A stretch of 14,537 nucleotides of DNA from Candidatus Woesearchaeota archaeon (GCA_964544725.1 CAZJDG010000018.1:1-14537); one strand, 5' to 3'. Shown: positions 1 to 13,442, counted from the first letter of the stretch. Made by a program: numbers and translations. The notes: a model not told the origin generated them from the letters alone.

Positions 1-134
1 CTTTCAAGTCAGAGGATAAAAGGGAAACAGAATCTAAACTTCACTGTCCAAAATGCTTTAGTGCAAATGTAGGTATGGTTTCAGGTTGTAGCGAACCAAC
101 CTGTTTTGATTGTGGATATTCAAAGTGTAGTTAA
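1..134 (+). CDS. nrdJ: 3' end (last ~43 codons) of a class II adenosylcobalamin-dependent ribonucleotide reductase-like gene: Cys-rich zinc-finger/redox tail
   Basis: Frame 3 reads FKSEDKRETESKLHCPKCFSANVGMVSGCSEPTCFDCGYSKCS*, with the stop at 132-134. The pattern is CxxC-x10-C-x4-CxxC-x4-C at the extreme C-terminus, as I recall for NrdJ tails. The downstream CobO and thioredoxin genes fit. Only the tail is visible. Confidence 0.45.
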   Translation, partial: FKSEDKRETESKLHCPKCFSANVGMVSGCSEPTCFDCGYSKCS

Positions 135-146
135 GGAACCTAAATT

Positions 147-154
147 TTTATATA
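147..154 (+). promoter_or_regulatory. archaeal TATA box (TTTATATA) for the 177 ORF; spacing implies a leaderless mRNA
   Basis: TTTATATA is centred about 26 nt upstream of the ATG at 177. No Shine-Dalgarno-like purine tract lies between them. Confidence 0.45.
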
Positions 155-176
155 ATTTATTCTTTAAGAATAAAGC

Positions 177-869
177 ATGAAAAATATAACTCTCGATGAA
201 TGTATTAGTCTTCAGGAGTCTTTTTTCCATGATGGAGTTTTTTCTCCATTTGAATTCGTTGAAGATTACCATGTATTTTATCCTTTAGCAATAATCGGTG
301 AGGTTGGAAGTCTTGTGAATAATTTCTGCAAAAAAATTAGAAGTCCAAATGACTACTCTTCTAAAATAAGAAATGAATCTGCAGACGTTTTTGTTTACTT
401 CCTTTTATTTGGAAGGATGATAGAAAAAAATGAAGGATTAAGGGTTTTTGGAAAAATTAAAGAAAATTGGGATGAAGAACCCTCAATCATTAAAGATGAT
501 TTTAATTTTAAAGGAGAAATAGATATTTTACTTAAAAAAATATCTTTATTTTCATCTACCGAAAAAAATGAATGTTACACTGAAGAATTTTTTTATGAAA
601 TTTTTAAATTAATAAAAGATATAAATTTTTATGTAACTGGCTCAACTTGGCAAGAAATTATTAATGAATTTCATATCAATGTTATTAAAGAATTTACAAA
701 CATTAAGAAATACTCTCCAGACTTATGGTATAATGGTAGTTGCTATGTAAATTTCTCAAAAATAATTGATTTCATAAAGAGGAATGAGGTTGAAGTTCCA
801 AAAAAAGTTTTCTTATTCCTTGATAGAATAGAAAAACTTCAAAGTGTAGCTAAAAATATAAATCCTTAA
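177..869 (+). CDS. DCTPP1/MazG-like all-alpha NTP pyrophosphohydrolase domain protein with an uncharacterised C-terminal half
   Basis: 230-aa ORF. Residues 38-79 read AIIGEVGSLVNNFCKK...NESADVFVYFLLFG, which resembles the DCTPP1/MazG signatures (GEVGEL...F, then ExxDVLIYL). The second Glu of the first motif is Ser here. The remaining ~140 aa are unrecognisable by eye. Confidence 0.5.
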   Translation: MKNITLDECISLQESFFHDGVFSPFEFVEDYHVFYPLAIIGEVGSLVNNFCKKIRSPNDYSSKIRNESADVFVYFLLFGRMIEKNEGLRVFGKIKENWDEEPSIIKDDFNFKGEIDILLKKISLFSSTEKNECYTEEFFYEIFKLIKDINFYVTGSTWQEIINEFHINVIKEFTNIKKYSPDLWYNGSCYVNFSKIIDFIKRNEVEVPKKVFLFLDRIEKLQSVAKNINP

Positions 870-901
870 ATATTTGTAAATAGCTTTCCAGACGATAAAT
901 C

Positions 902-909
902 TTTATATA
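902..909 (+). promoter_or_regulatory. archaeal TATA box (TTTATATA) for the adenosyltransferase gene
   Basis: This is the same octamer as at 147-154. It is centred about 25-26 nt upstream of the ATG at 931. Confidence 0.45.
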
Positions 910-930
910 TCGGATTTTTGGGTATTATAA

Positions 931-1452
931 ATGGAAGACAAATTCGGTTTAGTCCATATTTATACTGGAGAAGGGAAAGGCAAAACTTCTGCAGGAATGG
1001 GTCTGATTTTAAGAGCTCTTGGAAGAGGCTCAAAAGTAAAAATCATCCAATTATTCAAAAGAGATACTGGAGAACAATTTTTCTTTGAAAATTCAGGAGT
1101 CGAATATTTACAATTCAAACCCTTACATCCTTACTTTAAAACTTATGATGAAAGTGAACTTGGAAATTTAAGAAAAGAATTTTTAGTATTTTGGGAAAAG
1201 GCATTAGAAAATTTTGAAATTTATGATGTGGTTTTAATTGATGAACTTGGTCCAGGAATCAATTGGAAAATAATTCCTGAAGAATTAGCATTAGAATTAA
1301 TTGAAAATAAACCAGAAAACACAGAACTAATTTTAACTGGAAGAGATTTCCCAAAATCATTAATAGATAAAGCAAACTATGTGTCTGAAATCAAAAAAAT
1401 AAAACATCCTTACGATGAAGGAATTCTGGCAAGGGAAGGAATAGAATATTAA
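931..1452 (+). CDS. cobO: cob(I)alamin / cob(I)yrinic acid a,c-diamide adenosyltransferase (CobA/CobO/BtuR family)
   Basis: 173 aa. The N-terminus GLVHIYTGEGKGKTSAGMGLILRALGRGSKVKIIQLFK matches the family P-loop block (vYTGnGKGKTTAAlGlalRA.G.G..V.vvQFlK). LIDELG and the C-terminal HPYDEG block also fit. Confidence 0.85.
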   Translation: MEDKFGLVHIYTGEGKGKTSAGMGLILRALGRGSKVKIIQLFKRDTGEQFFFENSGVEYLQFKPLHPYFKTYDESELGNLRKEFLVFWEKALENFEIYDVVLIDELGPGINWKIIPEELALELIENKPENTELILTGRDFPKSLIDKANYVSEIKKIKHPYDEGILAREGIEY

Positions 1453-1727
1453 TGATACTTTGGATTTTCATAATCCTTGATGCACTAGTTCTCACAACCA
1501 TAACTCTTACACAATTTACTTCAGCTTCAACTTTCCCGTTACTCCTTTCTTCAATAACTTATTTAGGCGCTAAAGGATTTTTATTTTTCGGAGAACCCAT
1601 GAGCACAATAGACCTTTTCATAGCAGTTTATCTTATCCTAATGATTTTTGGAGTTAAGATAATATTCGCTTATTACTTGATGCTTGGGTGGTTTTTGTAC
1701 AAATTACTATTTACTCTTCTTAGTTAG
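1452..1727 (+). CDS. small hydrophobic membrane protein (about 3 TM segments), translationally coupled to cobO
   Basis: 91-aa ORF made almost entirely of hydrophobic stretches. Its ATG overlaps the cobO stop codon (TAATG at 1450-1454). Confidence 0.55.
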   Translation: MILWIFIILDALVLTTITLTQFTSASTFPLLLSSITYLGAKGFLFFGEPMSTIDLFIAVYLILMIFGVKIIFAYYLMLGWFLYKLLFTLLS

Positions 1728-1747
1728 ATATTTTTCTACAACAATAG

Positions 1748-1755
1748 TTATAAAT
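1748..1755 (+). promoter_or_regulatory. TATA-like box (TTATAAAT) upstream of the DCD::Nudix gene
   Basis: Centred 22 nt upstream of the ATG at 1773 and 25 nt upstream of the ATG at 1776. The second ATG may be the true start. Confidence 0.35.
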
Positions 1756-1772
1756 GATTCCGACAAAGAAAG

Positions 1773-3623
1773 ATGATGGACAATCAAAGGGGTCACACCT
1801 TAGTTTCACAGCAATTAAGGTCACTTATTTTAAATGGAGCAATACGGGTTCCAGAATCAAATCTTCTTCAACTCAGTTCAGATATTGAAAGTGAAAAAAA
1901 GAAAAAGGGATGGTTCAAGAAAGATTCTCTTGAAAGAAGGGTGCAACCAGGCTCATTTGAACCCAGTCTAGATGAAGAATTGTTTATTATTGACACTGAA
2001 GGTTCAGGAATTTTCAGACCAAGAAAAAATGAAAGTGTTTACAAAACTCTTTTACAAATTCCTGCACGAAGAAGAGTTAAGGTAAATATAGACGGAGGAT
2101 ATGAAGTAAAGAGGGGACATTCTGCACTAATACATCTTAATGAAAAAATAAACTTTGGAGTTTCCTCCGAATTTGATTTTATAAAATCCTCTCCAAAAAG
2201 TAGCATAGGAAGATTATTTCCAACTACTCGTTTATTATGTGATTATAGTGATTCTTTTGATGAGGCAACTGGAAATCATATGGGAGATTTAGATATGTGG
2301 CTTTTGTTCCAACCTTTTCCTAAAGATTTGATTATACAGCCAGGATTAACCTTAAATCAATTATGGTTCATTAAAGGAGACGCAAAATTAACAAATGAAG
2401 AAATAAGAAATGAATTATATAATAATCCATTGTTGTACGATGGAGATAGAAATCCCATTCAAAATCTAAAAGTTACTGATGGTCTTCCCCTCACTATTGA
2501 TTTAGAAGGAAAAGCAACTGAGGGAGTTGTAGGATTGCGTATGAGAAGAAATCCCCAACCAATTGACCTATCTAAAAAAGAGGAATATCTCCCTGAAGAA
2601 CATTTTGAACCAATTCTAGCAAAAGAAAAAATTGTTCTCAAACCAGGAAATCATTATCTCTTTGCTTCCAGTGAAGTATTATCAATTCCCTCTCACCTAA
2701 GTGCAGAGTTAAGAAGGCATTCACACGAAGGGCTTGAGGGAAAGTCACATGATGCTGGATGGATAGACCAAGGTTTTGTAGGGGATTTAGTTTTTGAAAT
2801 AGGTCCTTATGAAGAAATTACTTTAGAAGGAGAGAGAACACCAATAAGTAGACTTGATTTATTTAGAACATCTGAAATTCCGGATAAAATTTATGGAGTT
2901 GAAATAGGTTCAAGTTACCATGGTCAAAAAGGGCCGAAGACATCGAAACATTTCAAACCATTTGATTTTGCAATGGCTGCCAAAAACTATGAAAAATTAT
3001 CAAAGATGGTTTTAGTGCAAGATAGAGAAGTTTTACTAAGACATAGAACTATTCCTGAAGGGTTTGAACCAATGAGTCCAGAAAACACCCCAAATTTTTT
3101 TAGAGACATTGAAAGTGGTTTTTTCCACTCCCGTTATGATTGTGAAGAAGATCCTTTATTATTACAATTCATACCTTATGTTTTACTTTTTAATCAAGAT
3201 GAAGAAGTTTTTTCATATATCCGATCAGACAACATACACCATTACGGGGACAAAAGACTTTTCGGAAAACATTCAATAGGTGTTGGAGGGCATGTAGTCA
3301 AAAATGATGGACAGGATTATATTAGGAATTGTTTAGAACGAGAATTAGCAGAGGAGGTGAAAATTTCTGGAAAACATTCTCCCCCTTTATTTGCTGGAAC
3401 TCTATATGCAACAAACAAGCCAGTGGACAAAGTTCATTTAGGATTGATATATGCTCTCAGAGCAGAGGGAACAATCGAGCCTAATGAGGATTCAATAGTT
3501 CATGCGGAAATGGCTCCAATTAGTCAAATGAGAGAAGATTATCATCAAGGCATTGAAACCGAAACTTGGACAAGAATATTAATTCCACACTTAAAAAATA
3601 TCTACAATTTATCAAAACCATAA
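1773..3623 (+). CDS. two-lobed dCTP deaminase-like (dUTPase-fold, long DCD type) domain fused to a C-terminal Nudix hydrolase-like domain
   Basis: 616 aa. The N-terminus LVSQQLRSLILNGAIRV...VQPGSFEPSLDEE is Dcd-like. KSSIGRL appears in lobe 1. Lobe 2 has LKPGNHYLFASSEVLSIP...SHDAGWIDQGFVGDLVFEI...SYHGQKGPKTSK. The C-terminus has QFIPYVLLF...SIGVGGHV...LERELAEEVKI, a Nudix REUxEE core. Confidence 0.75.
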   Translation: MMDNQRGHTLVSQQLRSLILNGAIRVPESNLLQLSSDIESEKKKKGWFKKDSLERRVQPGSFEPSLDEELFIIDTEGSGIFRPRKNESVYKTLLQIPARRRVKVNIDGGYEVKRGHSALIHLNEKINFGVSSEFDFIKSSPKSSIGRLFPTTRLLCDYSDSFDEATGNHMGDLDMWLLFQPFPKDLIIQPGLTLNQLWFIKGDAKLTNEEIRNELYNNPLLYDGDRNPIQNLKVTDGLPLTIDLEGKATEGVVGLRMRRNPQPIDLSKKEEYLPEEHFEPILAKEKIVLKPGNHYLFASSEVLSIPSHLSAELRRHSHEGLEGKSHDAGWIDQGFVGDLVFEIGPYEEITLEGERTPISRLDLFRTSEIPDKIYGVEIGSSYHGQKGPKTSKHFKPFDFAMAAKNYEKLSKMVLVQDREVLLRHRTIPEGFEPMSPENTPNFFRDIESGFFHSRYDCEEDPLLLQFIPYVLLFNQDEEVFSYIRSDNIHHYGDKRLFGKHSIGVGGHVVKNDGQDYIRNCLERELAEEVKISGKHSPPLFAGTLYATNKPVDKVHLGLIYALRAEGTIEPNEDSIVHAEMAPISQMREDYHQGIETETWTRILIPHLKNIYNLSKP

Positions 3624-3626
3624 AAG

Positions 3627-3634
3627 TTTATAAA
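3627..3634 (+). promoter_or_regulatory. TATA box (TTTATAAA) upstream of thioredoxin
   Basis: Centred about 31 nt upstream of the ATG at 3662, just after the stop codon of the upstream gene. Confidence 0.35.
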
Positions 3635-3661
3635 TTGTATTTTTTCTATACTCTTGTTAAA

Positions 3662-3988
3662 ATGACAAACAACGATCAAGTTCCAGAATTAAGCGAACAG
3701 GAATTTAATTCTTACATCAAAGAGGGAACTGTTCTGATTGATTTTTTTGCAGACTGGTGCATGCCCTGTGTTATGATGTCTCCAGTAATAGATGAATTAT
3801 CTGAAAAATTTAAAGGGAAAATAAAATTCGGGAAACTAAATATCGAAGACAATTCAAATATTGCACAAAAATTCGGAGTGGCTTCAATTCCAAATTTTAT
3901 ATTATTCAAAGATGGTGAACAAATTGAACAATTTATTGGTTCAATGCCTGGAGATGATTTTAAAGAAAAATTAGAAAACTTTGTTTAA
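3662..3988 (+). CDS. trxA: thioredoxin
   Basis: 108 aa counted from the internal Met (MTNNDQ...). The active site is WCMPC (3755-3769), a variant of WCGPC. A cis-Pro block SIPNFILFKDG and a typical Trx length are present. The ORF-track start at 3566 overlaps the upstream gene and the promoter, so I rejected it. Confidence 0.9.
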   Translation: MTNNDQVPELSEQEFNSYIKEGTVLIDFFADWCMPCVMMSPVIDELSEKFKGKIKFGKLNIEDNSNIAQKFGVASIPNFILFKDGEQIEQFIGSMPGDDFKEKLENFV

Positions 3989-3989
3989 A

Positions 3990-4187
3990 ATGAAAAAGAT
4001 ATGTGGGATTTCAATTGAAGATTTTGCTACGGTTAGATTAGTTGGAGAAACTAGAAATTTAACTCCTGAAGAATTGAGGACAACTCTTAACAGAGATTAT
4101 CATCCTCTTGTTACTAAAGATAATGAAGGTGTTTTAGTTTATATGTCTGATAAAGAATATGAAGAATTGACAAAGGGAAGAGCATAA
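3990..4187 (+). CDS. Phd/YefM-fold small protein (antitoxin-like N-domain only, no toxin-binding tail)
   Basis: 65 aa from the ATG at 3990, which is 1 nt after the trx stop. YHPLVTKDNEGVLVYMSDKEYEELTK aligns by eye with E. coli YefM [27 protein letters not shown]. The protein ends right after this block. Confidence 0.5.
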   Translation: MKKICGISIEDFATVRLVGETRNLTPEELRTTLNRDYHPLVTKDNEGVLVYMSDKEYEELTKGRA

Positions 4188-4237: not shown

Positions 4238-4311
4238 GGCTCCGTAGCTCAGCTTGGTAGAGCACTGGACTTTTAATCCAGGTGTCGAGGGTTCGAATCC
4301 CTTCGGGGCCA
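4238..4311 (+). tRNA. tRNA-Lys: tRNA-Lys (anticodon UUU), no intron, CCA not encoded
   Basis: Cloverleaf folded by hand. Acceptor stem GGCTCCG/CGGGGCC with one G-U pair. D arm GCTC/GAGC. Anticodon stem CTGGA/TCCAG with loop CTTTTAA. T arm GAGGG-TTCGAAT-CCCTT. Discriminator A. Total 74 nt. Confidence 0.93.
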
Positions 4312-4312
4312 C

Positions 4313-4318
4313 TTTTTT
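4313..4318 (+). terminator. oligo-T archaeal termination signal after the tRNA
   Basis: A T6 run begins 2 nt after the tRNA 3' end. Confidence 0.4.
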
Positions 4319-4321
4319 AAA

Positions 4322-4588
4322 ATGAGTTTATCAAAACTAATTGAAGAAACAACCCAAAGGGAAACTTATTGTAGAAATATGGCTAAAAAATTTAAAAGAT
4401 TAGCAATTCTTTCGGGAGCAGTTTCTCTAGGTGCATTATATTTTCTTGACAAAAGTCCAACTATGAGTACTTTTACATCCCTAACTGGACTAGGATTCAC
4501 AATATTTGATGTTACCAATTATTTTAGGTATAATCAATATGCAAATTATTTAAGGGAAAGACATCCAATATATTTTAATGAAGATTAA
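4322..4588 (+). CDS. small hypothetical membrane protein
   Basis: 88-aa ORF with hydrophobic segments (LAILSGAVSLGALYFL; FTSLTGLGFTIF). It starts only 10 nt after the tRNA and has no separate promoter. No family recognised. Confidence 0.4.
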   Translation: MSLSKLIEETTQRETYCRNMAKKFKRLAILSGAVSLGALYFLDKSPTMSTFTSLTGLGFTIFDVTNYFRYNQYANYLRERHPIYFNED

Positions 4589-4668
4589 TTTCTCTAAAAA
4601 TCACCTAAAATTGACCAAAAAACAGGTTTCTAAAGCAATTCAGAAATGGTACATCAAGCAGCCTAAAA

Positions 4669-4676
4669 TTTATAAA
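4669..4676 (+). promoter_or_regulatory. TATA box (TTTATAAA) positioned for a leaderless start at the ATG at 4698
   Basis: Centred about 25-26 nt upstream of the ATG at 4698, the same geometry as at the 177 and 931 genes. Confidence 0.45.
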
Positions 4677-4792
4677 TAAAATCTACTTTAAATAATAATG
4701 GATAAATATAAACAAAGATTGGGAAAATTCTTATTGGAACAGGAATTTTTAGCAATCTTATTTCTTTTTCTGGATGTGAAAGTTTTGAAGAG

Positions 4793-5035
4793 ATGGTAGA
4801 ATCGACTCATGATAAAATATATAATAAGGTGTATAATGGTGCCTTACTAAGGTGTGTAGATACAAATCATGATGGTATTATTACATATAAGGAAAAAGAT
4901 GATTTTACTGTAGATTGGATCAAGAATCAAGGTGTAACAATGATAATGGGACAAGGACGTCCACTAAATCCCAGTGGAGAGAAAGTTTCTACAGCAACTT
5001 TGATAGAATGGTTAAAAGAAACATGCCTTAAATAA
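4793..5035 (+). CDS. small EF-hand Ca2+-binding protein; probably the 3' portion of a frameshifted lipoprotein gene that starts at 4698
   Basis: The canonical 12-residue EF-hand loop DTNHDGIITYKE (DxNxDGxIxxxE) lies at 4859-4894. Upstream in the same frame is KIGKILIGTGIFSNLISFSGC, a signal peptide plus lipobox-like Cys, but with no start codon. The nearest promoter-served ATG (4698) is in another frame. Confidence 0.55.
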   Translation: MVESTHDKIYNKVYNGALLRCVDTNHDGIITYKEKDDFTVDWIKNQGVTMIMGQGRPLNPSGEKVSTATLIEWLKETCLK

Positions 5036-5040
5036 TTCTT

Positions 5041-5508
5041 TTACTTTTTCATAGATTTTTTCATTCTGTAAAGCACTAATAACCATGTCAATAAAAAACC
5101 AATTATTGTTATCACTATAATTATCAAAAAATAATTTATCTGTTTTTCAACATAAAAAATGGAGCTTCCAGACGCTTTATCGTCTACCGTGACTATAATT
5201 GAATATATTCCAGATTGTGCATTTTCAGGTATTAAAATAGACTTAACCCAAGAAAGTTGAATCCCAACACCCTTTGTTTCTGTTTTTCCAATAATGATCT
5301 CATTTCCTTTTTTAATTTCATATTCTAAAAAGATATCATGCGTCCCTGGATTTTCCGGGTCTATTATTTCAAAAGTAAAATAAACCTTTTCTCCCGCCTC
5401 AACTCTTTCATATTCCTTAAGAACATTAACAGAAACATCAATTGCCGAAATAAAAGTCAAATTCAAGATTACTATGGATACTATAATATAAATTAATTTT
5501 TTATTCAT
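5041..5508 (-). CDS. secreted, C-terminally membrane-anchored surface protein (single beta-sandwich-like ectodomain)
   Basis: 155 aa. N-terminal signal or TM segment MNKKLIYIIVSIVILNLTFISA. A beta-rich middle of about 105 aa. C-terminal TM segment FLIIIVITIIGFLLTWLLVL followed by the basic tail YRMKKSMKK. Confidence 0.6.
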   Translation of the reverse strand: MNKKLIYIIVSIVILNLTFISAIDVSVNVLKEYERVEAGEKVYFTFEIIDPENPGTHDIFLEYEIKKGNEIIIGKTETKGVGIQLSWVKSILIPENAQSGIYSIIVTVDDKASGSSIFYVEKQINYFLIIIVITIIGFLLTWLLVLYRMKKSMKK

Positions 5509-5660
5509 TTTCTACTTCCTTTAACTTTTTAGAAAAGAGTCTTTTATCCACTAAATCCAAGTACCTTTTCCTGCCCCAACAAATTTTGCTTTAATCAATC
5601 CCTCTTCTCTAAGATTATTCTATAAGTTTTTCTGGATAACTTATCAAGTTATTTGTCCAT
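5501..5660 (-). pseudogene. decayed small winged-helix (wHTH) DNA-binding gene remnant
   Basis: The minus strand gives three consecutive fragments in different frames. They are MDK*LDKLSRKTYRIILEKRD*, NNLREEGLIKAKFVGAGKGTWI* and LDLVDKRLFSKKLKEVENE*. Joined, they look like a recognition helix, a wing and a C-terminal helix. The last fragment's stop overlaps the start region of the 5508 gene. The region is short and AT-rich, so over-reading is possible. Confidence 0.3.
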
Positions 5661-5744
5661 TATTTATGATTCATTTAATATTGCGTGATAAAGAATATAA
5701 AAAAGTATCGTTTAATATTAAATGACTGCAAGGAAATAGTTAAA

Positions 5745-5897
5745 ATGGCAAAAGTTCGTTACGTTAATATTTCAGTTCCAGATAAATTAGCAAAAGCTAT
5801 TGAAGATTATATTAAAGAACATCCTGAATTAGATTTAAGAAGTAGGGCCCAAGTTGTTAATTTTGCATTAAGAAAGTTGTTTGTTGATGGGAAATAG
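5745..5897 (+). CDS. ribbon-helix-helix (CopG/Arc/MetJ-like) DNA-binding protein
   Basis: 50 aa from the ATG at 5745: MAKVRYVNISVPDKLAKAIEDYIKEHPELDLRSRAQVVNFALRKLFVDGK. This is a beta strand (VNISVP) followed by two helices, the typical RHH layout. I consider the GTG start at 5685 in the ORF track unlikely. Confidence 0.6.
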   Translation: MAKVRYVNISVPDKLAKAIEDYIKEHPELDLRSRAQVVNFALRKLFVDGK

Positions 5898-5898
5898 A

Positions 5899-5905
5899 TT
5901 TTTTT
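5899..5905 (+). terminator. oligo-T (T7) termination signal after the RHH gene
   Basis: A T7 run begins 2 nt after the TAG stop. Confidence 0.35.
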
Positions 5906-5937
5906 AACAAATTATATAAATCTAAGAAATCAAAAGG

Positions 5938-5956
5938 TTTTTAAACCAATTTTTAG
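5938..5956 (+). repeat. copy 1 of the 19-bp direct repeat TTTTTAAACCAATTTTTAG (contains a TATA-like TTTTTAAA)
   Basis: An exact 19/19 match to 5998-6016, exactly 60 nt upstream of it. It lies in the intergenic region upstream of rpoH. Confidence 0.9.
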
Positions 5957-5997
5957 TTTCTTTTATTATTGGCCAGTTGTTAAAATAAATCAATAAA

Positions 5998-6016
5998 TTT
6001 TTAAACCAATTTTTAG
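5998..6016 (+). repeat. copy 2 of the 19-bp direct repeat TTTTTAAACCAATTTTTAG, ending 1 nt before the rpoH ATG
   Basis: Exact repeat of 5938-5956. The rpoH ATG at 6018 follows. Confidence 0.9.
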
Positions 6017-6017
6017 C

Positions 6018-6227
6018 ATGCACATTCTCCAACCAAAACACAGCAAACTAAATGAAAAAGAGTCTGAAAAGTTATTACAAAATCTAAATGTTTCTAAATC
6101 GCAACTACCCAAAATATATCTAAGTGATTCAGTATTACCTGAAGGGGCTGATGTCGGAGATGTTATAAAAATAGAAAGAAAAGGCCCTGATGGAAAATTA
6201 AATTTATATTACAGAGTTGTTGTTTAA
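6018..6227 (+). CDS. rpoH: DNA-directed RNA polymerase subunit H (Rpo5 / Rpb5 C-terminal domain homologue)
   Basis: 69 aa. HILQPKHSKLNEKESEKLLQNLNVSKSQLPKIYLSDSV...GDVIKIER...YYRVVV matches the archaeal RpoH pattern (H.LVPKHeiLseeE...l....qLPkI...DP......GdvvkI.R). It sits immediately upstream of rpoB. Confidence 0.9.
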   Translation: MHILQPKHSKLNEKESEKLLQNLNVSKSQLPKIYLSDSVLPEGADVGDVIKIERKGPDGKLNLYYRVVV

Positions 6228-6228
6228 T

Positions 6229-9200
6229 ATGAAAAACAACAGCCATATCGTTGTAAAAAAATATCTATCAGATCACTCCCTAGTACAATCAAATATTACT
6301 TCTTATAATAATTTTATCGAAAAAAGACTCCAAGAGATTGTCGATGAAATTTCAGAAACAATTGATAACGAAGACTTTGAAATAATTCTTGGAAAAGTTA
6401 AAGTGGGGAAACCAAGAATTATAGAATCCGATGGAAGTTCGGAAGACGTACTCCCTTATGAAGTAAGACTTAGAAATCTGACTTATTCTGCACCAATCAC
6501 TCTTGAAATGACTATCAAAAAAGATGGTCAAATTGACTCGGAAATAGTTGAAATTGGAAGAATTCCAGTAATGGTTGGAAGCAATGTGTGTAATACTCAT
6601 GGAATGTCTGAAGAGGAATTAATAAACAATTATAATGATCCTAAAGATTCAGGAGGTTACTTCATAATTAATGGAAATGAAAGAGTCATGGTTATGTCTG
6701 AAGACTTAGCAGAAAACCAACCATTCATTGAATACAACTCAAAAAAAGAACTTCATTTAAGATTATTCTCTTCAAGAGGAACCTACAGAATTCCAACAAC
6801 TATATCAGAAAGTAAAGAAGGACTTCTTGAGTTAAGTTTCAGTAGATTTAGAGATCTTCCAGCGGTTGTTATTTTGAAGGCATTAGGAATGGTAAAAGAA
6901 TCCGATATTGCCAAATTTATTGGAAAAGAAACAGATAGTGTTATTGTTAATCTTTACGAATTCGTTAATATAAACACATCAGAGGATGCATTGATGTACA
7001 TCGCTGAAAAAGCATCTTTACAAGGAACAAAAAAAGAAATTCTTGATAGAGCAAAACAAAGAATTGATTCTTATTTGTATCCACATATAGGTCAAAAGAA
7101 AGAAGATAGAATCAAAAAAGCAATTACCTTATGTAAATTAATCAAACAATATTTAGTTGCTAAAGAAAATCCTCATTTGAAAACAGATAAAGACCATTAT
7201 GCGAACAAAAGAGTGAGATTGTCCGGGGATTTATTAGCAAGTTTGTTCAGAGTTAATCTTGGAGTTTTAGTAAGAGATATTCACTATTCTTTACAAAAGG
7301 CTTCAAAAAGAAAAAAAATATTCTCAATTAGAACAATTGCAAAATCAACTTTATTCTCACATAGAATTGAATCTGCAATAGCGACTGGAAGTTGGACTGG
7401 AGAAAGATCAGGTGTTACCCAAAATATGGATAAGACAAATTATCTAGCAATTATTTCTCAATTGCAGAGAGTTTCATCTATGTTGCCCTCAGAACAAGAA
7501 AACTTCTTAGCAAGAACATTACATCCAACTCATTATGGTAAATTCTGTCCAATCGAAACTCCTGAAGGAACTGAAATTGGACTAAGAAAAAACCTTGCCA
7601 TTTTATGTCAAATTTCTACAAGGACCGATTTAGATGAAGAAAAGTTTTTGAAAGATTTAGAATCTGAAGGCTTAGATAAAGAAGGAGTTGCAGGAACTGA
7701 TGTTTTCCTTAACGGAAGATTCATTGGAAATGTAGCATCTCCTGATGATTTTGTAAAGAAGATAAGGGAAAAAAGAAGAGATGGCGAACTACCCTTACAA
7801 CTAAACATAAGATCTGATTCTAATTTTGAAATTATTACAATTTCGACAGAACCAGGAAGAGCACTAAGACCATTAATAATTGTTGATAATGGAATCCCAA
7901 GATTAACAAAAGAACATTTACTTAGATTGGAACAAGATGAAATTAACTGGGATTATTTAATCAAAGAAAAAGTGATTGAATATCTAGATACCTCTGAAGA
8001 AGAAAATGCACTAGTCTCATTATACGAAGAAGAATTAACACATGAACACACTCACTTAGAAATTGATTCTATGGATTTGCTTGGAGTTGTTACAAGTTTA
8101 GTTCCTTACGGAAACCACGACCAAAGTTCAAGATTAAACAGAGGAAGTAAGACTCAGAAGCAAGCTTTAGGTTTGTATGCTGCAAATTACTTATGTAGAT
8201 TGGACACAGATGTATCTATTTTACAATATCCCCAAAAACCAATCGTAAGAAGTTTTGTCTATGACACATTAGACACTTATCCTGCTGGACAAAATTTAGT
8301 GGTTGCAATTATGACTCATGAAGGATACAACATGGAGGATGCTTTAGTTTTCAACAAGGGCAGTATTGACAGAGGGGTTGGAAGAAGTTTTTATTTTAGA
8401 CCCCATTCTGCAGTCGAAATGAATTATGCAGGAAGTTTAAAAGATGAAATTATAATTCCAGACAAAGACACATCAGGTTACAAAACTGAAGCAAGCTACA
8501 AGAACTTAGAAGATGATGGTGTTGTTTATCCTGAAGCAGAAATCAATGAAGGAGAAGTTTTAATCGGAAAAATCTCACCCCCAAAATTCTTGTCAGAAGC
8601 TAGAGAAATTTCAGTTAGAACAAAAAAAGAATCAAGTGTAACAATGAAGCAAGAAGAAAAAGGAACTGTTGAATCTGTTTTCATAACTCAAGATTCAGAA
8701 GGAAACAAAATCGTCCAAGTTAAAACAAGAGATTTAAGAATCCCTGAAATTGGAGATAAATTCGCTACTTCGCATGGCCAGAAAGGAGTTATTGGGGCAA
8801 TAATTCCTGAAAATGATGTTTCTTTTACTTCAAGAGGAATAAGACCTGACGTAATTTTCAATCCACATGGTTTATCAAGTAGAATGACTATGGGATACCT
8901 TTTAGAATTGCTTGCTGGAAAAGTAGGATGCCTCAGAGGTAAAATTGTTGATGGAACTCCTTTCTCTGGAGAAACTAAGTCTGAATTAGAAGGTCAATTA
9001 GTAAATTTAGGATTTAGATTTGATGGGAAAGAAGCCATGTACAATGGAGTTACTGGAAAAAGAATGGATGTTAAAATATTCGTTGGAAACTTATACTATT
9101 TGAAACTGAAATATATGGTGGCAAACAAGATACATGGAAGAGCCTCTGGAAAAATCGCCCTATTAACAAGACAGCCAATCGAAGGAAGATCAAGAGGAGG

Positions 9201-9483
9201 AGCATTAAGATTAGGAGAAATGGAGCAGCAAGCATTAGTTGCACATGGAGCATCTCTATTACTAAAAGAAAGATATGATTCTGATAAGGTAATATTACAT
9301 ATTTGTACAAAATGTGGAACAATTGCAGTTGAAGACAATATTAGGGAAAAAATCTACTGTCCTTCTTGTTCCAGTGAAGAGGCTGAACCTGTAGAAGTTT
9401 CTTATGCGTTCAAATTACTATTGGAAGAACTTCAAGGATTACATATTCAAACTAAACTTGGTCTAAAGAACAAATACGAGTAA
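6229..9483 (+). CDS. rpoB: DNA-directed RNA polymerase subunit B (unsplit)
   Basis: About 1084 aa from the ATG at 6229 (TAA-T-ATG junction with rpoH). Hallmark blocks are GYFIINGNERV, GDKFATSHGQKG, RMTMGYLLE, GEMEQQALVAHGA and the C-terminal Zn ribbon CTKCG...CPSC. Confidence 0.97.
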   Translation: MKNNSHIVVKKYLSDHSLVQSNITSYNNFIEKRLQEIVDEISETIDNEDFEIILGKVKVGKPRIIESDGSSEDVLPYEVRLRNLTYSAPITLEMTIKKDGQIDSEIVEIGRIPVMVGSNVCNTHGMSEEELINNYNDPKDSGGYFIINGNERVMVMSEDLAENQPFIEYNSKKELHLRLFSSRGTYRIPTTISESKEGLLELSFSRFRDLPAVVILKALGMVKESDIAKFIGKETDSVIVNLYEFVNINTSEDALMYIAEKASLQGTKKEILDRAKQRIDSYLYPHIGQKKEDRIKKAITLCKLIKQYLVAKENPHLKTDKDHYANKRVRLSGDLLASLFRVNLGVLVRDIHYSLQKASKRKKIFSIRTIAKSTLFSHRIESAIATGSWTGERSGVTQNMDKTNYLAIISQLQRVSSMLPSEQENFLARTLHPTHYGKFCPIETPEGTEIGLRKNLAILCQISTRTDLDEEKFLKDLESEGLDKEGVAGTDVFLNGRFIGNVASPDDFVKKIREKRRDGELPLQLNIRSDSNFEIITISTEPGRALRPLIIVDNGIPRLTKEHLLRLEQDEINWDYLIKEKVIEYLDTSEEENALVSLYEEELTHEHTHLEIDSMDLLGVVTSLVPYGNHDQSSRLNRGSKTQKQALGLYAANYLCRLDTDVSILQYPQKPIVRSFVYDTLDTYPAGQNLVVAIMTHEGYNMEDALVFNKGSIDRGVGRSFYFRPHSAVEMNYAGSLKDEIIIPDKDTSGYKTEASYKNLEDDGVVYPEAEINEGEVLIGKISPPKFLSEAREISVRTKKESSVTMKQEEKGTVESVFITQDSEGNKIVQVKTRDLRIPEIGDKFATSHGQKGVIGAIIPENDVSFTSRGIRPDVIFNPHGLSSRMTMGYLLELLAGKVGCLRGKIVDGTPFSGETKSELEGQLVNLGFRFDGKEAMYNGVTGKRMDVKIFVGNLYYLKLKYMVANKIHGRASGKIALLTRQPIEGRSRGGALRLGEMEQQALVAHGASLLLKERYDSDKVILHICTKCGTIAVEDNIREKIYCPSCSSEEAEPVEVSYAFKLLLEELQGLHIQTKLGLKNKYE

Positions 9484-9501: not shown

Positions 9502-12500
9502 ATGTCAAAAGCAATTAAGAAAAAAATATCTGAAATAAAGTTTGTTCTGATTAGTCCAGAGCAAATTAAAAAGATTTCAGTTGCAAAAATTGTAACACCT
9601 GAACTTTATGATATTGATCAGTACCCAGTTGATGGCGGATTAATGGACTTGAGACTTGGTGCAATAGACCCAGGAGTAAGATGTAGAACTTGTGGTGGAA
9701 GATTAAAAGAATGTCTTGGACACTCTGGAAGGATTGAATTAGCAAGACCAGTAATGCATTTGAAATATGTTCCCCTAATTGAAACTGGTTTAAGATGTTT
9801 CTGTCACGAATGTGGAAAATTAATGCTTAGTGATAAAGACTTAGTAAAATATCCAGCAAGCGAGAGAGCTAAAAAAGCTAAAGATTGTAAGAGATGCCCA
9901 CACTGTAATACTGCTCATGAAAAAGTAAAAACTGAAAAGCCAACAAGTTTCTATATTGGAAAAAAGAGACTTTTCCCAACAAAAATAAGAGAAATTTTAG
10001 TTAATATTCCAGATGAAGAATTAAGAAAGATTGGAGTAGACCCTGAAGGAGCGAGACCTGAATGGGCTGTTTTAACTTTACTTTTAGTTCCTTCTGTAAC
10101 AATTAGACCAAGTATTGTTCTTGAATCTGGAGAAAAAAGTGAAGATGATTTAACACATAAACTTTCAGACATAATTAGAGCAAATCAAAGACTTTGGGAA
10201 AACCTAAATGCAGGGGCTCCAGAAGTTATTATTGAAGATTTATGGGATTTATTACAATTCCACATAACAACTTTCTTCGACAATGCAGTTTCAAAAATCC
10301 CCCCAGCAAGACACAGAAGTGGACAACCATTAAAAACAATCACTGAAAGAATTAAAGGAAAAGAAGGAAGAATCAGAAAGAACCTTGCAGGAAAAAGAGT
10401 CAATTATTCTGCAAGAACTGTTGTTTCTCCAGACCCATCTATTGATCTTAATGAAGTTGGAATTCCTTTAGAAATTGCAAAAATTGTAACTGTAGCAGAA
10501 ACAGTTAATGACATTAATCTTGAAAAGCTAAAAAAATTAATAGAAAATGGAGAAAATTATCCTGGAGCAAATTACATAATAAGACCTGATGGAAAAAAGA
10601 AAAAAATAACAGAAGAATTGAAAGAAGAAATTATGAGTGAAATTATCCCTGGATATCAAGTTGAGAGACATTTACAAGAAGGAGACATAGTTCTATTCAA
10701 TAGACATCCTAGTTTACACAAGGGAAGTTTAATGGCACACTATGTAAAAATTTTACCAGGAAGAACATTCAGATTGCACCCAGGAACAACTTTCCCATAT
10801 AATGCTGATTTTGATGGAGATGAAATGAATATTCACTCTCCACAAACTGAAGAAGCGAGAGCTGAAGCAATAAATTTACTGGATGTTAAACAAAATTTAA
10901 TGTCTCCAAAAAATAATACTAATTTTTTAGGATTCAGTGCTGACGCAATAACTGGAAATTATTTATTAGGATTAAAAGAATTTGATTCTGGATCTGCAAA
11001 CCAACTACTTTATAATTCCGGAATAGACAGTTCATTCTCAAAAAAGAATATTTCAGGGGAAAAAATTTTCTCCCAATTTATCCCTAAGATTAATTTCTCA
11101 AATGATTCCATACAAATAAAGGATGGAAATATCATAAAAGGTAAAATTGACAAAACTCTTTTTGGAAGTGAAGATGGAGAATTAGTCAAACATCTAGATA
11201 AAGAAGTTGGAAGAGCTGAAACAACCAAAATAATCAAAAATTTATTTGACTTGGGAATAAATTATTTAACAGATAGAGGAATAACTATCTCTCTTGAAGA
11301 TTTGAATCTACCTGTAAAGGCACTTACAGAAAGTAAGGAAATTATAAATAGGGCTGAAAAGAAAGTTGAAAACATAATTGAAGAATACAAACAAGAGCAA
11401 GTAGAAATAATGCCAGGAAGAACTAAAGAAGAAACTAGGGAAATCAAAATTCTTCAAACTCTAAACGAAGTAAGAACAAAAATTGGGGAAATGGTGAAGA
11501 AAGAATTCCCTGAAGATAATCCGGTAAACCATATGATTACTTCTGGGGGTGGTGGAAATATTCTGAATATAACTCAAATAGCATGTTGTGTGGGTCAACA
11601 GGCTCTAGGGGGTAAAAGAGTTGACATAGGATACAATCAAAGAACATTACCTTTCTTTAAGAAAGAAGAAATCTCCCCAGCATCAAGAGGATTCATTAAT
11701 AGTTCATTCATGAAAGGGCTGAGACCGGACGAATTCTTCTTTGGAGCAGTTACTGGAAGAGATTCTCTAATGGATACTGCATTAAGAACTCCTAAATCTG
11801 GTTACTTATATAGAAGACTTGCAAATGCATTCCAAGACTTAAAAGTAGAGTATGATGGAACAATAAGAGACAGTAATAATAATGTTATAGAATTCCAGTA
11901 TGGACATGATGGTTTGGATGTATCAAAACTTCACCTAGGGGAAAAAATCTCTTCCGGAGAAGCTATCGGAATCGTTACCGCACAATCATTCGGAGAATCC
12001 TCAACACAGATGGTTCTAAACACTTTCCATATGGCAGGTGTTCAGGAAATGCAGGTTACTGCAGGACTACCAAGAATTATAGAAATTTTTGACGCAAGAA
12101 AAAAACCTTCATCTCCAAAAATGGATATTTACCTATCAAAAGATAATAACAATGAAAAAGATGCAAAATCATTTGCTGAAAGAATCAAAGAAGTTAAAGT
12201 AAGTGAAATAGCTTCTGAAATAAAATTGAACTTTAGTGATAAAAGTATTGAAATTGTTTCAGACAAGCAAGGACTTAGGCAAGCACATCTCTCATTAAAA
12301 AAAGTTGTTGACAAATTGAATGATCTTGGGTACAACTCTAAAGAGAAAGGAGATTCAATAATCATGAATGTTTCTTTGCTAGACTTCAAAGAAATTTATA
12401 AGCTTAAAGAAAAAATAAAGAAAACAATAATTTCTGGAATTAAGGATATCAAAGAAGTTGTAGTTGTAAGGAAAGATAGAGATTACATGATTGCAACTGC

Positions 12501-12945
12501 AGGGACCAACTTGAAGAAAATTGTTGAATTAAAAGAAGTTGACAAAGATAAAACAATCTCAAATGATTTCCACGAAGTTGTAGAAGTTTTCGGAGTAGAA
12601 GTTGCAAGACAATTAATAATTGAAGAAATAAAAAAAGTTTTGAATACACAGGGAATTGATATTGATATAAGGCATTTAGAATTAGCTGCTGATGCAATGA
12701 GTAATACTGGTTCAATAAAAGGGATAACTAGAATGGGGATCATTGCCCAAAAATCTTCAATTCTTGCAAGAGCAACTTTCGAAACACCAGTAAAACAATT
12801 TGTAAACGCATCCGTAAAGGGGAATAAAGATAAGTTGACAAGTGTTATAGAAAACATTATACTCAATCAGCCAGTTCCCGTCGGTACGGGATTACCTGGT
12901 TTACTCGTAAAAGTAATTGGTTCTTTAGCAAAAAAGAAAGAATAA
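9502..12945 (+). CDS. rpoA: DNA-directed RNA polymerase largest subunit, A' and A'' portions encoded as one continuous ORF
   Basis: 1147 aa. N-terminal Zn sites CRTCGG...CLGHSG and CHECG...CPHC. Catalytic NADFDGDEM at 10801-10827. Bridge helix GRDSLMDTALRTPKSGYLYRRL. Trigger loop GEAIGIVTAQSFGESSTQMVLNTFHMAG at 11956-12039. A''-type C-terminus NQPVPVGTGL. No stop codon lies between the A' and A'' regions. Confidence 0.95.
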   Translation: MSKAIKKKISEIKFVLISPEQIKKISVAKIVTPELYDIDQYPVDGGLMDLRLGAIDPGVRCRTCGGRLKECLGHSGRIELARPVMHLKYVPLIETGLRCFCHECGKLMLSDKDLVKYPASERAKKAKDCKRCPHCNTAHEKVKTEKPTSFYIGKKRLFPTKIREILVNIPDEELRKIGVDPEGARPEWAVLTLLLVPSVTIRPSIVLESGEKSEDDLTHKLSDIIRANQRLWENLNAGAPEVIIEDLWDLLQFHITTFFDNAVSKIPPARHRSGQPLKTITERIKGKEGRIRKNLAGKRVNYSARTVVSPDPSIDLNEVGIPLEIAKIVTVAETVNDINLEKLKKLIENGENYPGANYIIRPDGKKKKITEELKEEIMSEIIPGYQVERHLQEGDIVLFNRHPSLHKGSLMAHYVKILPGRTFRLHPGTTFPYNADFDGDEMNIHSPQTEEARAEAINLLDVKQNLMSPKNNTNFLGFSADAITGNYLLGLKEFDSGSANQLLYNSGIDSSFSKKNISGEKIFSQFIPKINFSNDSIQIKDGNIIKGKIDKTLFGSEDGELVKHLDKEVGRAETTKIIKNLFDLGINYLTDRGITISLEDLNLPVKALTESKEIINRAEKKVENIIEEYKQEQVEIMPGRTKEETREIKILQTLNEVRTKIGEMVKKEFPEDNPVNHMITSGGGGNILNITQIACCVGQQALGGKRVDIGYNQRTLPFFKKEEISPASRGFINSSFMKGLRPDEFFFGAVTGRDSLMDTALRTPKSGYLYRRLANAFQDLKVEYDGTIRDSNNNVIEFQYGHDGLDVSKLHLGEKISSGEAIGIVTAQSFGESSTQMVLNTFHMAGVQEMQVTAGLPRIIEIFDARKKPSSPKMDIYLSKDNNNEKDAKSFAERIKEVKVSEIASEIKLNFSDKSIEIVSDKQGLRQAHLSLKKVVDKLNDLGYNSKEKGDSIIMNVSLLDFKEIYKLKEKIKKTIISGIKDIKEVVVVRKDRDYMIATAGTNLKKIVELKEVDKDKTISNDFHEVVEVFGVEVARQLIIEEIKKVLNTQGIDIDIRHLELAADAMSNTGSIKGITRMGIIAQKSSILARATFETPVKQFVNASVKGNKDKLTSVIENIILNQPVPVGTGLPGLLVKVIGSLAKKKE

Positions 12946-13025: not shown

Positions 13026-13442
13026 ATGGCTAATACTATAAATATGCAAGATATGCGGCACTTGAATTTATTCGGAAGAATAACACATATCAGCACAAGG
13101 TTCTGTTTCCCATATAATGAGCATATTATTTTCAGTGTTCCAATGAATCTTGTTTCAAAAGCAGTTGGAGAAAACGGAAGAAACATAAAAAAATTAAATG
13201 AAATTCTTGGAAAAAGAGTAAAAGTAGTTCCTTCTCCTAACGGAATTCAGGATGCAGAAAAATTCATCGAAAGGGTAATTAGCCCTACCCAATTTAGAGA
13301 AATAGAGCTAATAGATGATACAATAATTATAACGGCTGGTTCCCAAAACAAAGCAGCATTATTGGGAAGAAACAAAAGGAGATTATTAGAATTACAAAAA
13401 ATAGTTAAGAATTTTTTTGGAAAAGAGCTAAGAATTATTTAA
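13026..13442 (+). CDS. nusA: archaeal NusA-like transcription termination/antitermination factor (two KH domains)
   Basis: 138 aa. Two KH GxxG-type blocks are present, AVGENGRNIKKLNEILGKRVKVV and LLGRNKRRLLELQKIV. Its position after rpoA matches the conserved archaeal cluster. Confidence 0.85.
   Translation: MANTINMQDMRHLNLFGRITHISTRFCFPYNEHIIFSVPMNLVSKAVGENGRNIKKLNEILGKRVKVVPSPNGIQDAEKFIERVISPTQFREIELIDDTIIITAGSQNKAALLGRNKRRLLELQKIVKNFFGKELRII

Follow-up and report, generated by a model that had tools for sequence, protein, structure and literature searches.

The closest described relative of the gene cluster reported here is the class Ib nrdI-nrdE-nrdF-ymaB operon of Bacillus subtilis, in which ribonucleotide reductase genes are accompanied by a Nudix gene of the YmaB/TM1382 family. 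Among the class Ib reductases compared, ymaB lies in the reductase operon of Bacillus species only, and YmaB is a Nudix protein with preliminary deoxynucleoside triphosphate (dNTP) pyrophosphohydrolase activity (PMC5960316). Here we analyzed a 14,537-nt stretch of DNA from a Candidatus Woesearchaeota archaeon (GCA_964544725.1 CAZJDG010000018.1:1-14537), referred to as the window herein, which is practically the whole public contig (14,539 nt; G+C ∼31%). In contrast to the Bacillus operon, the Nudix domain encoded at its left end is fused to a two-domain dCTP deaminase (DCD), the reductase is the B12-dependent class II enzyme NrdJ, genes for CobO, a membrane protein and thioredoxin (Trx) are present as well, and the host is archaeal. 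A preliminary description of the window had not recognized the combination as a described operon. We find it to be a new variant, with the nrd-ymaB operon of Bacillus (PMC5960316) and the NrdR-controlled nrd operons of bacteria as known relatives. Its additions to a known nrd-type cluster are the DCD::YmaB-Nudix fusion, a NrdJ-bound orphan membrane protein, a rare protein of the MazG superfamily and the in-situ swapping of genes between relatives.

We estimate a probability of roughly 80% that the block forms the distal end of a housekeeping gene cluster for deoxynucleotide synthesis, native to a Woesearchaeota-like (DPANN) archaeon and located just upstream of rpoH-rpoB-rpoA. The core of this reading, a dNTP-supply module around a B12-dependent reductase with its cofactor enzyme and thioredoxin, was already part of the preliminary description, and it is borne out by the NrdJ tail, by the co-variation of CobO with NrdJ and by the linkage of the fusion gene to reductases. 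As first described, positions 1-4187 hold a compact, co-directional block of seven + strand genes with intergenic gaps of -1 to 61 nt, followed by tRNA-Lys:

3-134, + strand: 3′ end of nrdJ, 43 codons with six cysteines and the stop codon
177-869, + strand: ORF230, an open reading frame (ORF) for a divergent member of the MazG/all-alpha NTP-pyrophosphohydrolase superfamily, by profile and fold methods
931-1452, + strand: CobO (CobA/CobO/BtuR ATP:cob(I)alamin adenosyltransferase; PF02572, 5.9e-48)
1452-1727, + strand: TM91, a membrane protein of 91 amino acids (aa) whose start overlaps the CobO stop
1773-3623, + strand: DCD::Nudix fusion of 616 aa (DCD_N + DCD_C + NUDIX)
3662-3988, + strand: thioredoxin of 108 aa (TIGR01068, PF00085, WCMPC)
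3990-4187, + strand: ORF65, a lineage-specific small protein of 65 aa with no family match
4238-4312, + strand: tRNA-Lys(UUU), found by ARAGORN

In the mechanism that we propose, NrdJ would reduce ribonucleotides with adenosylcobalamin, which CobO would make from imported corrinoid, and the six-cysteine tail of NrdJ would be re-reduced, most simply by the thioredoxin of the operon. The DCD module would deaminate dCTP to dUTP, and the substrate of the YmaB-type Nudix domain would be a pyrimidine dNTP, most probably dUTP, which it would hydrolyze to dUMP and pyrophosphate; with its two modules, the fusion would in that case parallel bifunctional DCD-DUT and feed thymidylate synthase. ORF230 may be a nucleotide pyrophosphatase or a nucleotide-binding protein that trims or sanitizes the pool, and TM91 may be a membrane partner of the B12 branch, acting in corrinoid uptake or hand-over. 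The earlier claim that all seven genes serve dNTP supply or sanitation thus holds for the core genes, while TM91 and ORF65 are assigned to it by position alone.

A reductase-linked cluster and its exchangeable slots

The window holds the last 43 codons of nrdJ alone, and the reductase barrel domain lies off the contig; full-length nrdJ was therefore judged from relatives, whose loci carry L numbers herein. Frame 3 of positions 3-131 translates to FKSEDKRETESKLHCPKCFSANVGMVSGCSEPTCFDCGYSKCS, a six-cysteine C-terminal zinc/redox array of the form CPKC-x10-C-x4-CxxC-x4-C. Over all 43 residues, the fragment is 86% identical to the C-terminal end of an 838-aa protein in L066 with the NrdJ domains Ribonuc_red_lgN, lgC and TSCPD. 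NrdJ ends elsewhere gave 81% (L069), 71% (L005; 27 of 38 residues, E 1e-18) and 94% over 32 residues (L078), and the C-terminal end of NCBIfam PRK08665 matched the isolated fragment weakly (E 0.013). By these alignments, the 5′ partial gene, previously taken for a ribonucleotide reductase, is confirmed as the C-terminus of a B12-dependent class II NrdJ. Six terminal cysteines are the array of the C-terminal, cysteine-rich domain (CRD) found in most class II reductases (Loderer et al. 2017, PMC5704485). The window fragment resembles CRD-type enzymes in having six cysteines at its extreme C-terminus, as do its full-length relatives in carrying TSCPD upstream of the array.

One genome per GTDB species was scanned for DCD::Nudix, which yielded 59 loci; ORFs were called and clustered, and recurrent clusters were annotated with Pfam. 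Linkage was counted over 49 non-redundant loci with a full-length fusion and flanks of up to 10 kb. A reductase catalytic subunit was found within 10 kb of the fusion gene in 18 of the 49 (19 including the nrdJ tail of the window), compared with ∼2% expected by chance if the genome is taken to measure ∼1 Mb and to encode a single reductase (binomial 1.7e-18, ignoring relatedness). NrdR was present in 14/49 and thioredoxin in 12/49, and at least one deoxynucleotide gene besides thioredoxin in 25/49 (26 with the window tail). In other loci, ThyX, Tmk or Dut lay near the fusion. The reductase may be co-directional upstream, divergent or downstream, and all three classes occur: class I NrdAB (L001/L002), class II (many loci) and class III NrdD/NrdG (L016, L031, L040). 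The homologues are thus not scattered without conserved linkage.

When we compared gene orders in relatives of the window, a common scaffold emerged:

Window (RpoB reference): [NrdJ]-ORF230-CobO-TM91-DCD::Nudix-Trx-ORF65-tRNA-Lys
L066/L067 (RpoB 95.7%): NrdR-NrdJ-115-aa weak MazG-CobO-116 aa-TM91 homologue-191-aa DCD-735-aa thymidylate synthase/pterin/dCMP-deaminase fusion-Trx-121 aa-tRNA-Lys-126 aa-rpoH
L001/L002 (RpoB 94.1-94.4%): NrdR-NrdA(ATP-cone)-NrdB-DCD::Nudix-Trx-ORF68-tRNA-Lys...rpoH, with neither CobO nor TM91
L005, L006, L073 (more distant): NrdR-NrdJ-x-CobO-TM91-DCD::Nudix-Trx
L069 (contig starts just upstream of nrdJ): NrdJ-x-CobO-TM91-DCD::Nudix to the contig end

The comparison shows a shared order of nrdR with NrdR boxes, reductase, small nucleotide-hydrolase gene, adenosyltransferase and TM91 if the reductase is of class II, a cytosine-deaminating slot, thioredoxin and tRNA-Lys, with the gene functions as predicted from sequence. 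What stands between NrdJ and CobO varies: it is ORF230 in the window, a weak MazG protein of 115 aa in both L005 and L066, and in L069 a protein resembling nucleoside 2-deoxyribosyltransferase. The slot after TM91 is filled by a predicted cytosine-deaminating deoxynucleotide enzyme in every relative compared. For instance, DCD::Nudix (window, L005, L006, L069, L073) is replaced by a canonical 191-aa DCD with a ThyA-pterin-dCMP-deaminase fusion in L066/L072, by a P-loop-kinase/dCMP-deaminase fusion in L074 (2649-3689) and L076 (1003-2034), and by a two-domain DCD without Nudix on the opposite strand in L078. Because these alternatives are functionally equivalent, the fusion would serve the dC-to-dU branch that feeds thymidylate synthesis; this is the strongest comparative argument that we have. 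As far as annotation by homology goes, the comparison also shows that near relatives swapped both the class of reductase and the dC-to-dU enzyme in situ, and that the cofactor-support genes travel with the reductase.

Such cassette exchange between near relatives makes the locus a recombination-prone site, and some of its modules may well be mobile-derived. This bears on the alternative that the whole block is a virus-derived or mobile auxiliary nucleotide-metabolism island integrated at tRNA-Lys. Among the auxiliary genes typical of phages are those for reductase, thioredoxin, MazG-like proteins, dCTP deaminase and Nudix proteins. The Nudix domain hits phrog_8902 (4.3e-24), homologues of it occur in 47 phage records, cassettes have clearly been exchanged among near relatives, and the region just past the tRNA (4313-5900) is variable. 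However, the proposed composition check against the rpo operon found the block to be native, with a relative synonymous codon usage (RSCU) correlation of 0.94 (control rpoB vs rpoA, 0.97) and a tetranucleotide correlation of 0.945 (control, 0.963). The only PHROG matches of the window fall in its deaminase, Nudix and thioredoxin domains. No integrase-like ORF was found in the window when its ORFs were screened against Pfam, and it holds no viral structural or replication gene and no att-like repeat of the tRNA 3′ end. Downstream of the block lie rpoH, rpoB and rpoA, the latter two unsplit, and a gene for a NusA-like KH protein; together with the G+C content of ∼31%, this marks the contig as archaeal and of the DPANN type. 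The tRNA-Lys(UUU) gene occupies the same relative position in L001, L006, L066 and L054 and is close to DCD::Nudix in L016 and L031, and synteny of tRNA-Lys with rpoH/rpoB is common to L001/2, L005, L006, L066, L054 and L078, so that distant relatives with the same scaffold have tRNA-Lys and rpoH-rpoB-rpoA in the same place. The fusion, moreover, is vertically widespread in DPANN genomes. Judged by this synteny, the tRNA is a conserved neighbor and not a boundary made by integration, contrary to the earlier suggestion that the block ends at an integration site, and we regard a mobile island as very unlikely.

We further considered whether DCD::Nudix and ORF230 form a nucleotide-depletion anti-virus defense module that is merely parked by the reductase. 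dCTP deaminases and dNTPases are known defense effectors, and ORF230 has a rare, patchy distribution. In the slot after TM91, the kinase-deaminase fusions of L074 and L076 match the PADLOC dCTPase model (9.5e-54 and 1.2e-46); the slot thus accommodates dCTP deaminases of both the defense and the biosynthetic type. In contrast, ten proteins of the window gave no match to any PADLOC model, and the window deaminase has a dUTPase fold rather than the cytidine-deaminase fold of the defense type. The slot alternates with biosynthetic thymidylate synthase and canonical DCD, and the genes that recur near the fusion encode ThyX, Tmk, Dut, NrdR and reductases. We hold a defensive role to be extremely unlikely. 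The choice between housekeeping, viral and defensive origins had been called undecidable from the window; synteny in relatives, native codon usage and the lack of a PADLOC match or an integrase in the window decide it in favor of housekeeping.

The regulatory region of the relatives provides a further likeness to bacterial nrd operons. Rodionov and Gelfand reportedly described NrdR boxes and NrdR-controlled nrd operons of bacteria in 2005. Likewise, the clusters of the relatives open with nrdR, preceded by one or two 16-bp palindromes with the consensus ACACAATATATTGTGT; paired boxes are 31-32 bp apart. They differ from the bacterial operons in their DPANN host and in the position of the boxes just downstream of archaeal TATA-like elements (TTTAAATA-like). 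NrdR with bacterial-type boxes upstream of nrdR was found in L001, L005, L006, L014, L025, L027, L028, L032, L034, L035, L038, L040, L048 and L054, and in L028 and L035 the boxes lie in an intergenic region shared with a divergent DCD::Nudix gene. Fusion loci that lack a reductase had no extra NrdR boxes upstream of DCD::Nudix. The window itself contains no box, the best score being 9.6 bits inside rpoB, compared with 14-22 bits for true boxes, because the promoter-proximal part of the cluster lies off the contig. Its distal genes are either transcribed together with those upstream or served by the AT-rich elements that stand before each of them. Our literature searches found no paper on NrdR in DPANN archaea, and those on TM1382, COG4112 and dCTP deaminase plus Nudix in DPANN archaea gave nothing relevant.

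The DCD::Nudix fusion

The fusion consists of a dUTPase-fold two-domain DCD module (∼aa 50-395) and a Nudix part of the YmaB/TM1382 family (∼aa 409-611). Pfam analysis yielded DCD_C (92.9 bits), DCD (64 bits), DCD_N (43.7 bits) and NUDIX (PF00293, 3e-4), all above their cut-offs, with E-values of 2e-26 for PF22569 and 3.4e-11 for PF06559, in agreement with the identity originally given to the protein. The DCD module matches the Agrobacterium tumefaciens "2′-deoxycytidine 5′-triphosphate deaminase" (PDB 2R9Q; PF06559+PF22569) at 7.5e-23 as a single sequence and at 5.9e-50 as a profile over residues 47-392; the two have the same N- and C-domain architecture, the Agrobacterium protein being without the Nudix domain. 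The C-half of the module matches 2QXX (4.4e-8), with the catalytic E129 of Mycobacterium tuberculosis Dcd aligned to E342, a residue invariant in 26 family sequences. The KSSxGR motif is invariant in the N-half (K142, S143, G146, R147) and degenerate in the C-half. With KSSxGR in the N-half and the catalytic Glu in the C-half, the two halves therefore look complementary.

The C-terminal 200 residues, which form the Nudix part, match Thermotoga maritima TM1382 (PDB 3E57) at 2.8e-14, or 6e-24 as a profile. G505-G506-H507 are invariant, and R523, E524, E527 and E528 are conserved at 90% or more. The same part is 28% identical over ∼200 residues (E 1e-19) to a 205-aa Bacillus velezensis protein encoded right after nrdI-nrdE-nrdF, a place that in B. 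subtilis belongs to ymaB, flanked there by nrdF and by the amidase/spoVK genes. This homology favors a different reading of the fusion within a housekeeping cluster, namely that the Nudix domain is a reductase regulator that hydrolyzes dATP, or dNTPs generally, and that the DCD module acts independently. The published speculation for Bacillus YmaB is indeed that it makes dAMP from dATP and controls dATP, not that it hydrolyzes dUTP (PMC5960316). The fusion is also linked to reductases of all three classes, and in L016, L026 and L041 a separate trimeric dUTPase (Dut) adjoins it, for which reason the Nudix domain need not be a dUTPase.

However, stand-alone Nudix homologues from candidate phyla radiation (CPR) bacteria, archaea and phage lie among tmk, thyA, DHFR and dut genes and not by reductase subunits. 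A Giovannonibacteria genome has the order tmk-[Nudix]-thyA and Pseudomonas phage nickie thyA-DHFR-[Nudix]-tmk; a Saccharibacteria genome has the homologue near tmk, and archaeal homologues adjoin dut and nucleoside phosphorylase. The covalent fusion to dCTP deaminase suggests pyrimidine channeling, and in one 765-aa NCBI metagenome protein (P0022) it is extended to a triple fusion of DCD_N-DCD_C, Nudix and NDK (residues 625-761). Lastly, the alternatives in the slot after TM91 are all cytosine deaminases. A regulatory Nudix domain is, in our judgment, unlikely. Fusion to dCTP deaminase and the thyA, tmk and dut neighbors instead point to pyrimidine dNTP hydrolysis for thymidylate synthesis by YmaB-type Nudix proteins, and our preferred hypothesis is that dCTP would be converted to dUTP and then to dUMP inside one polypeptide. 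The net reaction proposed would be that of DCD-DUT from Methanocaldococcus jannaschii and M. tuberculosis (1OGH, 2QXX). Those enzymes carry out both steps in one dUTPase-fold domain of 190-200 aa, whereas the fusion has a duplicated deaminase and a separate Nudix fold, which makes the analogy a putative, functional one.

Clustering at 90% identity divides the fusion family into more than 115 groups, almost all with proteins of ∼600 aa, from more than 50 DPANN species; groups with a source name are labeled Nanoarchaeota, Woesearchaeota or Pacearchaeota. A protein identical to that of the window (P0001) lies solely on contigs of 3.5-4.4 kb. Several loci have related genes beside the fusion gene: stand-alone YmaB-like Nudix paralogues of 212-221 aa (L009, L027), a 366-aa two-domain DCD without Nudix (L031), and further members of the paralogue clusters of ∼190 aa (L007) and 349-366 aa (L007, L048).

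The B12 branch and the thioredoxin

CobO scores 163.8 bits with PF02572 (gathering threshold 25.7) over profile positions 3-172 of 172 and has the P-loop GEGKGKTS. With TIGR00708 it reaches 137.9 bits, under the equivalog cut-off of 167.75; it thus belongs to the family without earning the equivalog-level name. The preliminary description had placed the cofactor enzyme beside a B12-dependent reductase, and its co-variation with NrdJ agrees with this. CobO adjoins NrdJ in L005, L006, L037, L066, L069, L073 and L075; in L076 only a partial NrdJ end precedes CobO, and the contig of L079 starts inside CobO. In L014, L032 and L034 a PduO-type adenosyltransferase (PF01923, 1e-49) stands at the place of CobO. 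Since this enzyme displaces CobO non-orthologously at the same place, we conclude that it is the adenosyltransferase function that is tied to NrdJ. CobO is absent from the class I version of the cluster (L001), and adenosyltransferase and TM91 vanish together in the class I relative. As predicted from homology and gene order, CobO would supply adenosylcobalamin for NrdJ from scavenged corrinoid. B12 synthesis is not expected of such a genome-reduced archaeon.

The start codon of TM91 overlaps the stop codon of CobO (TAATG at 1450-1454), which positions the gene for translational coupling, as had been noted for this membrane protein. TM91 has three to four hydrophobic segments and the invariant residues D10, Y37, K41, D54, Y75, Y83 and K84. 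No match was found in Pfam, NCBIfam, PHROG or PADLOC, nor among PDB sequences. We also compared it with a 91-aa membrane protein encoded beside a Nudix gene in a Staphylococcus phage and found no relation. TM91 loci were collected from two seeds, DCD::Nudix and TM91 itself. In all loci recovered (window, L005, L006, L014, L032, L034, L066, L069, L073-L079), TM91 neighbors NrdJ or its adenosyltransferase; a hidden Markov model (HMM) search found homologues in NrdJ loci only, and a search of JGI metagenomes seeded on TM91 gave eight clear loci, with TM91 directly after NrdJ or CobO in 8/8. The class I relative L001/L002 has no TM91, and neither do some NrdJ loci (L028, L035 and those with NrdJ of the 950-970-aa type). 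From this co-variation alone, we infer that TM91 may act in corrinoid uptake or hand-over.

The thioredoxin scores 109.9 bits with TIGR01068 (cut-off 96.8), matches PF00085 at 1.2e-26 and has the active site WCMPC. Its start is likely the ATG at 3662, which gives 108 aa as called in relatives, and not the TTG at 3566. Thioredoxin follows the deaminase slot at the same place in L001/2, L005, L006, L066, L073, L074 and L078, whatever the class of reductase, and is retained even with the class I enzyme of L001. The operon thioredoxin is a candidate reductant of NrdJ. The CRD-type NrdJ of Stackebrandtia differs in that no thioredoxin served it (PMC5704485), whereas a thioredoxin gene is kept in the cluster described here.

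Three genes in the relatives look intein-interrupted. These are the NrdJ genes at L028:2883-9233 and L032:4868-8593, which encode 2116 and 1241 aa, and a 239-aa thioredoxin gene at L028:1071-1790 with unrelated sequence after the WC active site.

The remaining genes and the weight of the evidence

ORF230 matches nothing in Pfam, NCBIfam, PHROG or PADLOC. A word-based search recovered five proteins in 5.8 billion, and an exhaustive profile search gave 37 relatives in 1.84 billion representatives. When ten of the weakest profile matches were scanned, 10/10 were Pfam MazG proteins, matched over residues 29-95. An hhalign comparison with a MazG-like set gave 97.8% probability (E 8.9e-13) over residues 22-81, the two-helix core; the set was partly found with the ORF230 profile and so is not fully independent, while the Pfam assignments are independent. 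The AlphaFold2 (AF2) model is confident and all-helical (pLDDT 83, pTM 0.82). Foldseek ranks dimeric dUTPases highest among PDB folds, those from trypanosomatids, from Campylobacter and from phages of staphylococci, with weak scores (E 0.09-1, TM 0.38-0.58, root-mean-square deviation 5-11 Å), and a C-terminal helical extension brings ORF230 to a dimeric-dUTPase-like size. The motifs GE42VGS and E67-S-A-D70 hold the conserved E42, E/D67 and D70, that is, three of the four metal ligands of ExxE...ExxD; the second Glu of ExxE is Ser or Thr in 5/5 aligned members.

ORF230 thus shares the acidic-motif two-helix core of the MazG/dimeric all-alpha dUTPase superfamily (PF03819, PF12643; 1OGK, 2YB0, 5MYD, 1W2Y) and is like dimeric dUTPases in its size and general all-alpha shape. 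It differs in lacking a Pfam match, in the Ser/Thr substitution, in its own invariant motifs (RSPNDY, WQ, FH, DLxYxGSC) and in its weak fold scores. At the superfamily level, we assign ORF230 as a rare, divergent member whose activity may be altered. Of the initial label, "DCTPP1/MazG-like", the MazG part is retained, and with it, through the Pfam MazG relatives, the link to nucleotide metabolism at superfamily level. DCTPP1 is too specific: the analysis supports membership of the superfamily, not orthology to DCTPP1, and one of the four metal ligands is missing. A role as a reductase-specific partner was likewise rejected, placement in an nrdJ cluster being confined to the window and L034. 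Elsewhere (L064:3-1673, L065:993-2783, L084:2-160), ORF230-family genes come directly after ABC-exporter-type genes (membrane plus ATPase), and the one in L083 stands before a DUF402 gene. In one Woesearchaeota genome, a 120-aa MazG-family gene (PF03819, 6.4e-4) lies between rpoH and rpoB (L006:13110-13472).

ORF65 starts 1 nt past the thioredoxin stop. An HMM search found homologues in L001/L002 only (61% identity), and no Pfam or NCBIfam family matched at E up to 0.1. The YefM fold once assigned to it is not supported, given no family match and a weak single-sequence AF2 model (pLDDT 64.7) with no significant Foldseek match; for a Phd/YefM antitoxin, the next gene is a tRNA and not a toxin.

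Between tRNA-Lys and rpoH (4313-5900) are four small ORFs, namely an 88-aa membrane protein, an 80-aa protein with an EF-hand-like loop, a 155-aa membrane protein (- strand) and a 70-aa protein. The content of this region is wholly different in relatives with 94-96% identical RpoB, where L001 has genes of 337 and 78 aa and L066 one of 126 aa, and its codon usage agrees less closely with that of the rpo genes (r 0.78 in a small sample). Neither an integrase nor an att repeat was found in it. Just upstream of rpoH, a 33-nt direct repeat (5924-5956 and 5984-6016; copies 88% identical, 60 nt apart) has TTTTTAAACCAATTTTTAG in each copy and may be a duplicated promoter element. RpoB is encoded by one 1088-aa ORF (6217-9483) and RpoA by one 1147-aa ORF with Rpb1 domains 1-5 (9502-12945); in most archaea, rpoA is divided into A′ and A″. 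A 197-aa ORF at 13439-14032 (- strand) yields matches to the lipid A deacylase PagL (1.4e-7) and to a model for outer-membrane beta-barrels (0.0036), which is odd for an archaeal contig.

Several points weigh against the housekeeping cluster with the functions proposed here. No reductase appears in 30 of the 49 fusion loci in the sequence at hand. In the window, AT-rich TATA-like elements stand before most genes and there is no NrdR box, which leaves co-transcription putative. The functions of the three novel proteins (ORF230, TM91 and DCD::Nudix) are predictions from sequence. The fusion scores under the NCBIfam equivalog cut-offs (PRK07559, 134.2 vs 283; TIGR02274, 43.8 vs 92.8), and we know of no biochemical characterization of the two-domain DCD 2R9Q. 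In the Nudix part, the box spacing is longer than the canonical Gx5Ex7REUxEExGU, the Glu at position 7 is not evident, and Pfam NUDIX is barely over its threshold (21.3 vs 21.1 bits). The separate dUTPases and the dATP proposal for YmaB given above count here as well. In vitro, CRD-type NrdJ was not reduced by the thioredoxins of its own organism (PMC5704485). Lastly, ORF230 relatives elsewhere are not by a reductase: three come after ABC-exporter-type genes and a fourth before a DUF402 gene, and on this ground we see ORF230 as an occasional guest and not a fixed part of the operon.

The boldest form of our proposal joins three claims: that TM91, as a corrinoid importer or hand-over factor, founds a new type of small membrane protein dedicated to NrdJ, that the fusion takes dCTP to dUMP by a new two-fold route, and that the operon thioredoxin is the physiological reductant of six-cysteine NrdJ. 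That all three would hold together is rather doubtful. If the functional readings fail, the locus stays an ordinary nucleotide-metabolism gene cluster. Its value is that of testable functional hypotheses rather than a new principle.

DPANN archaea are regarded as subsisting on metabolites that they scavenge, and their DNA-precursor balance and B12 supply are largely inferred from gene lists. The locus offers concrete, testable leads on the function of YmaB-type Nudix proteins, which has been a puzzle ever since the nrd operon of Bacillus was first reported. The operon thioredoxin is a candidate reductant for a class of NrdJ without an established physiological reductant. TM91 is a candidate for the missing corrinoid-handling step and, if this is true, would let a genome-reduced archaeon feed scavenged corrinoid to CobO and NrdJ.

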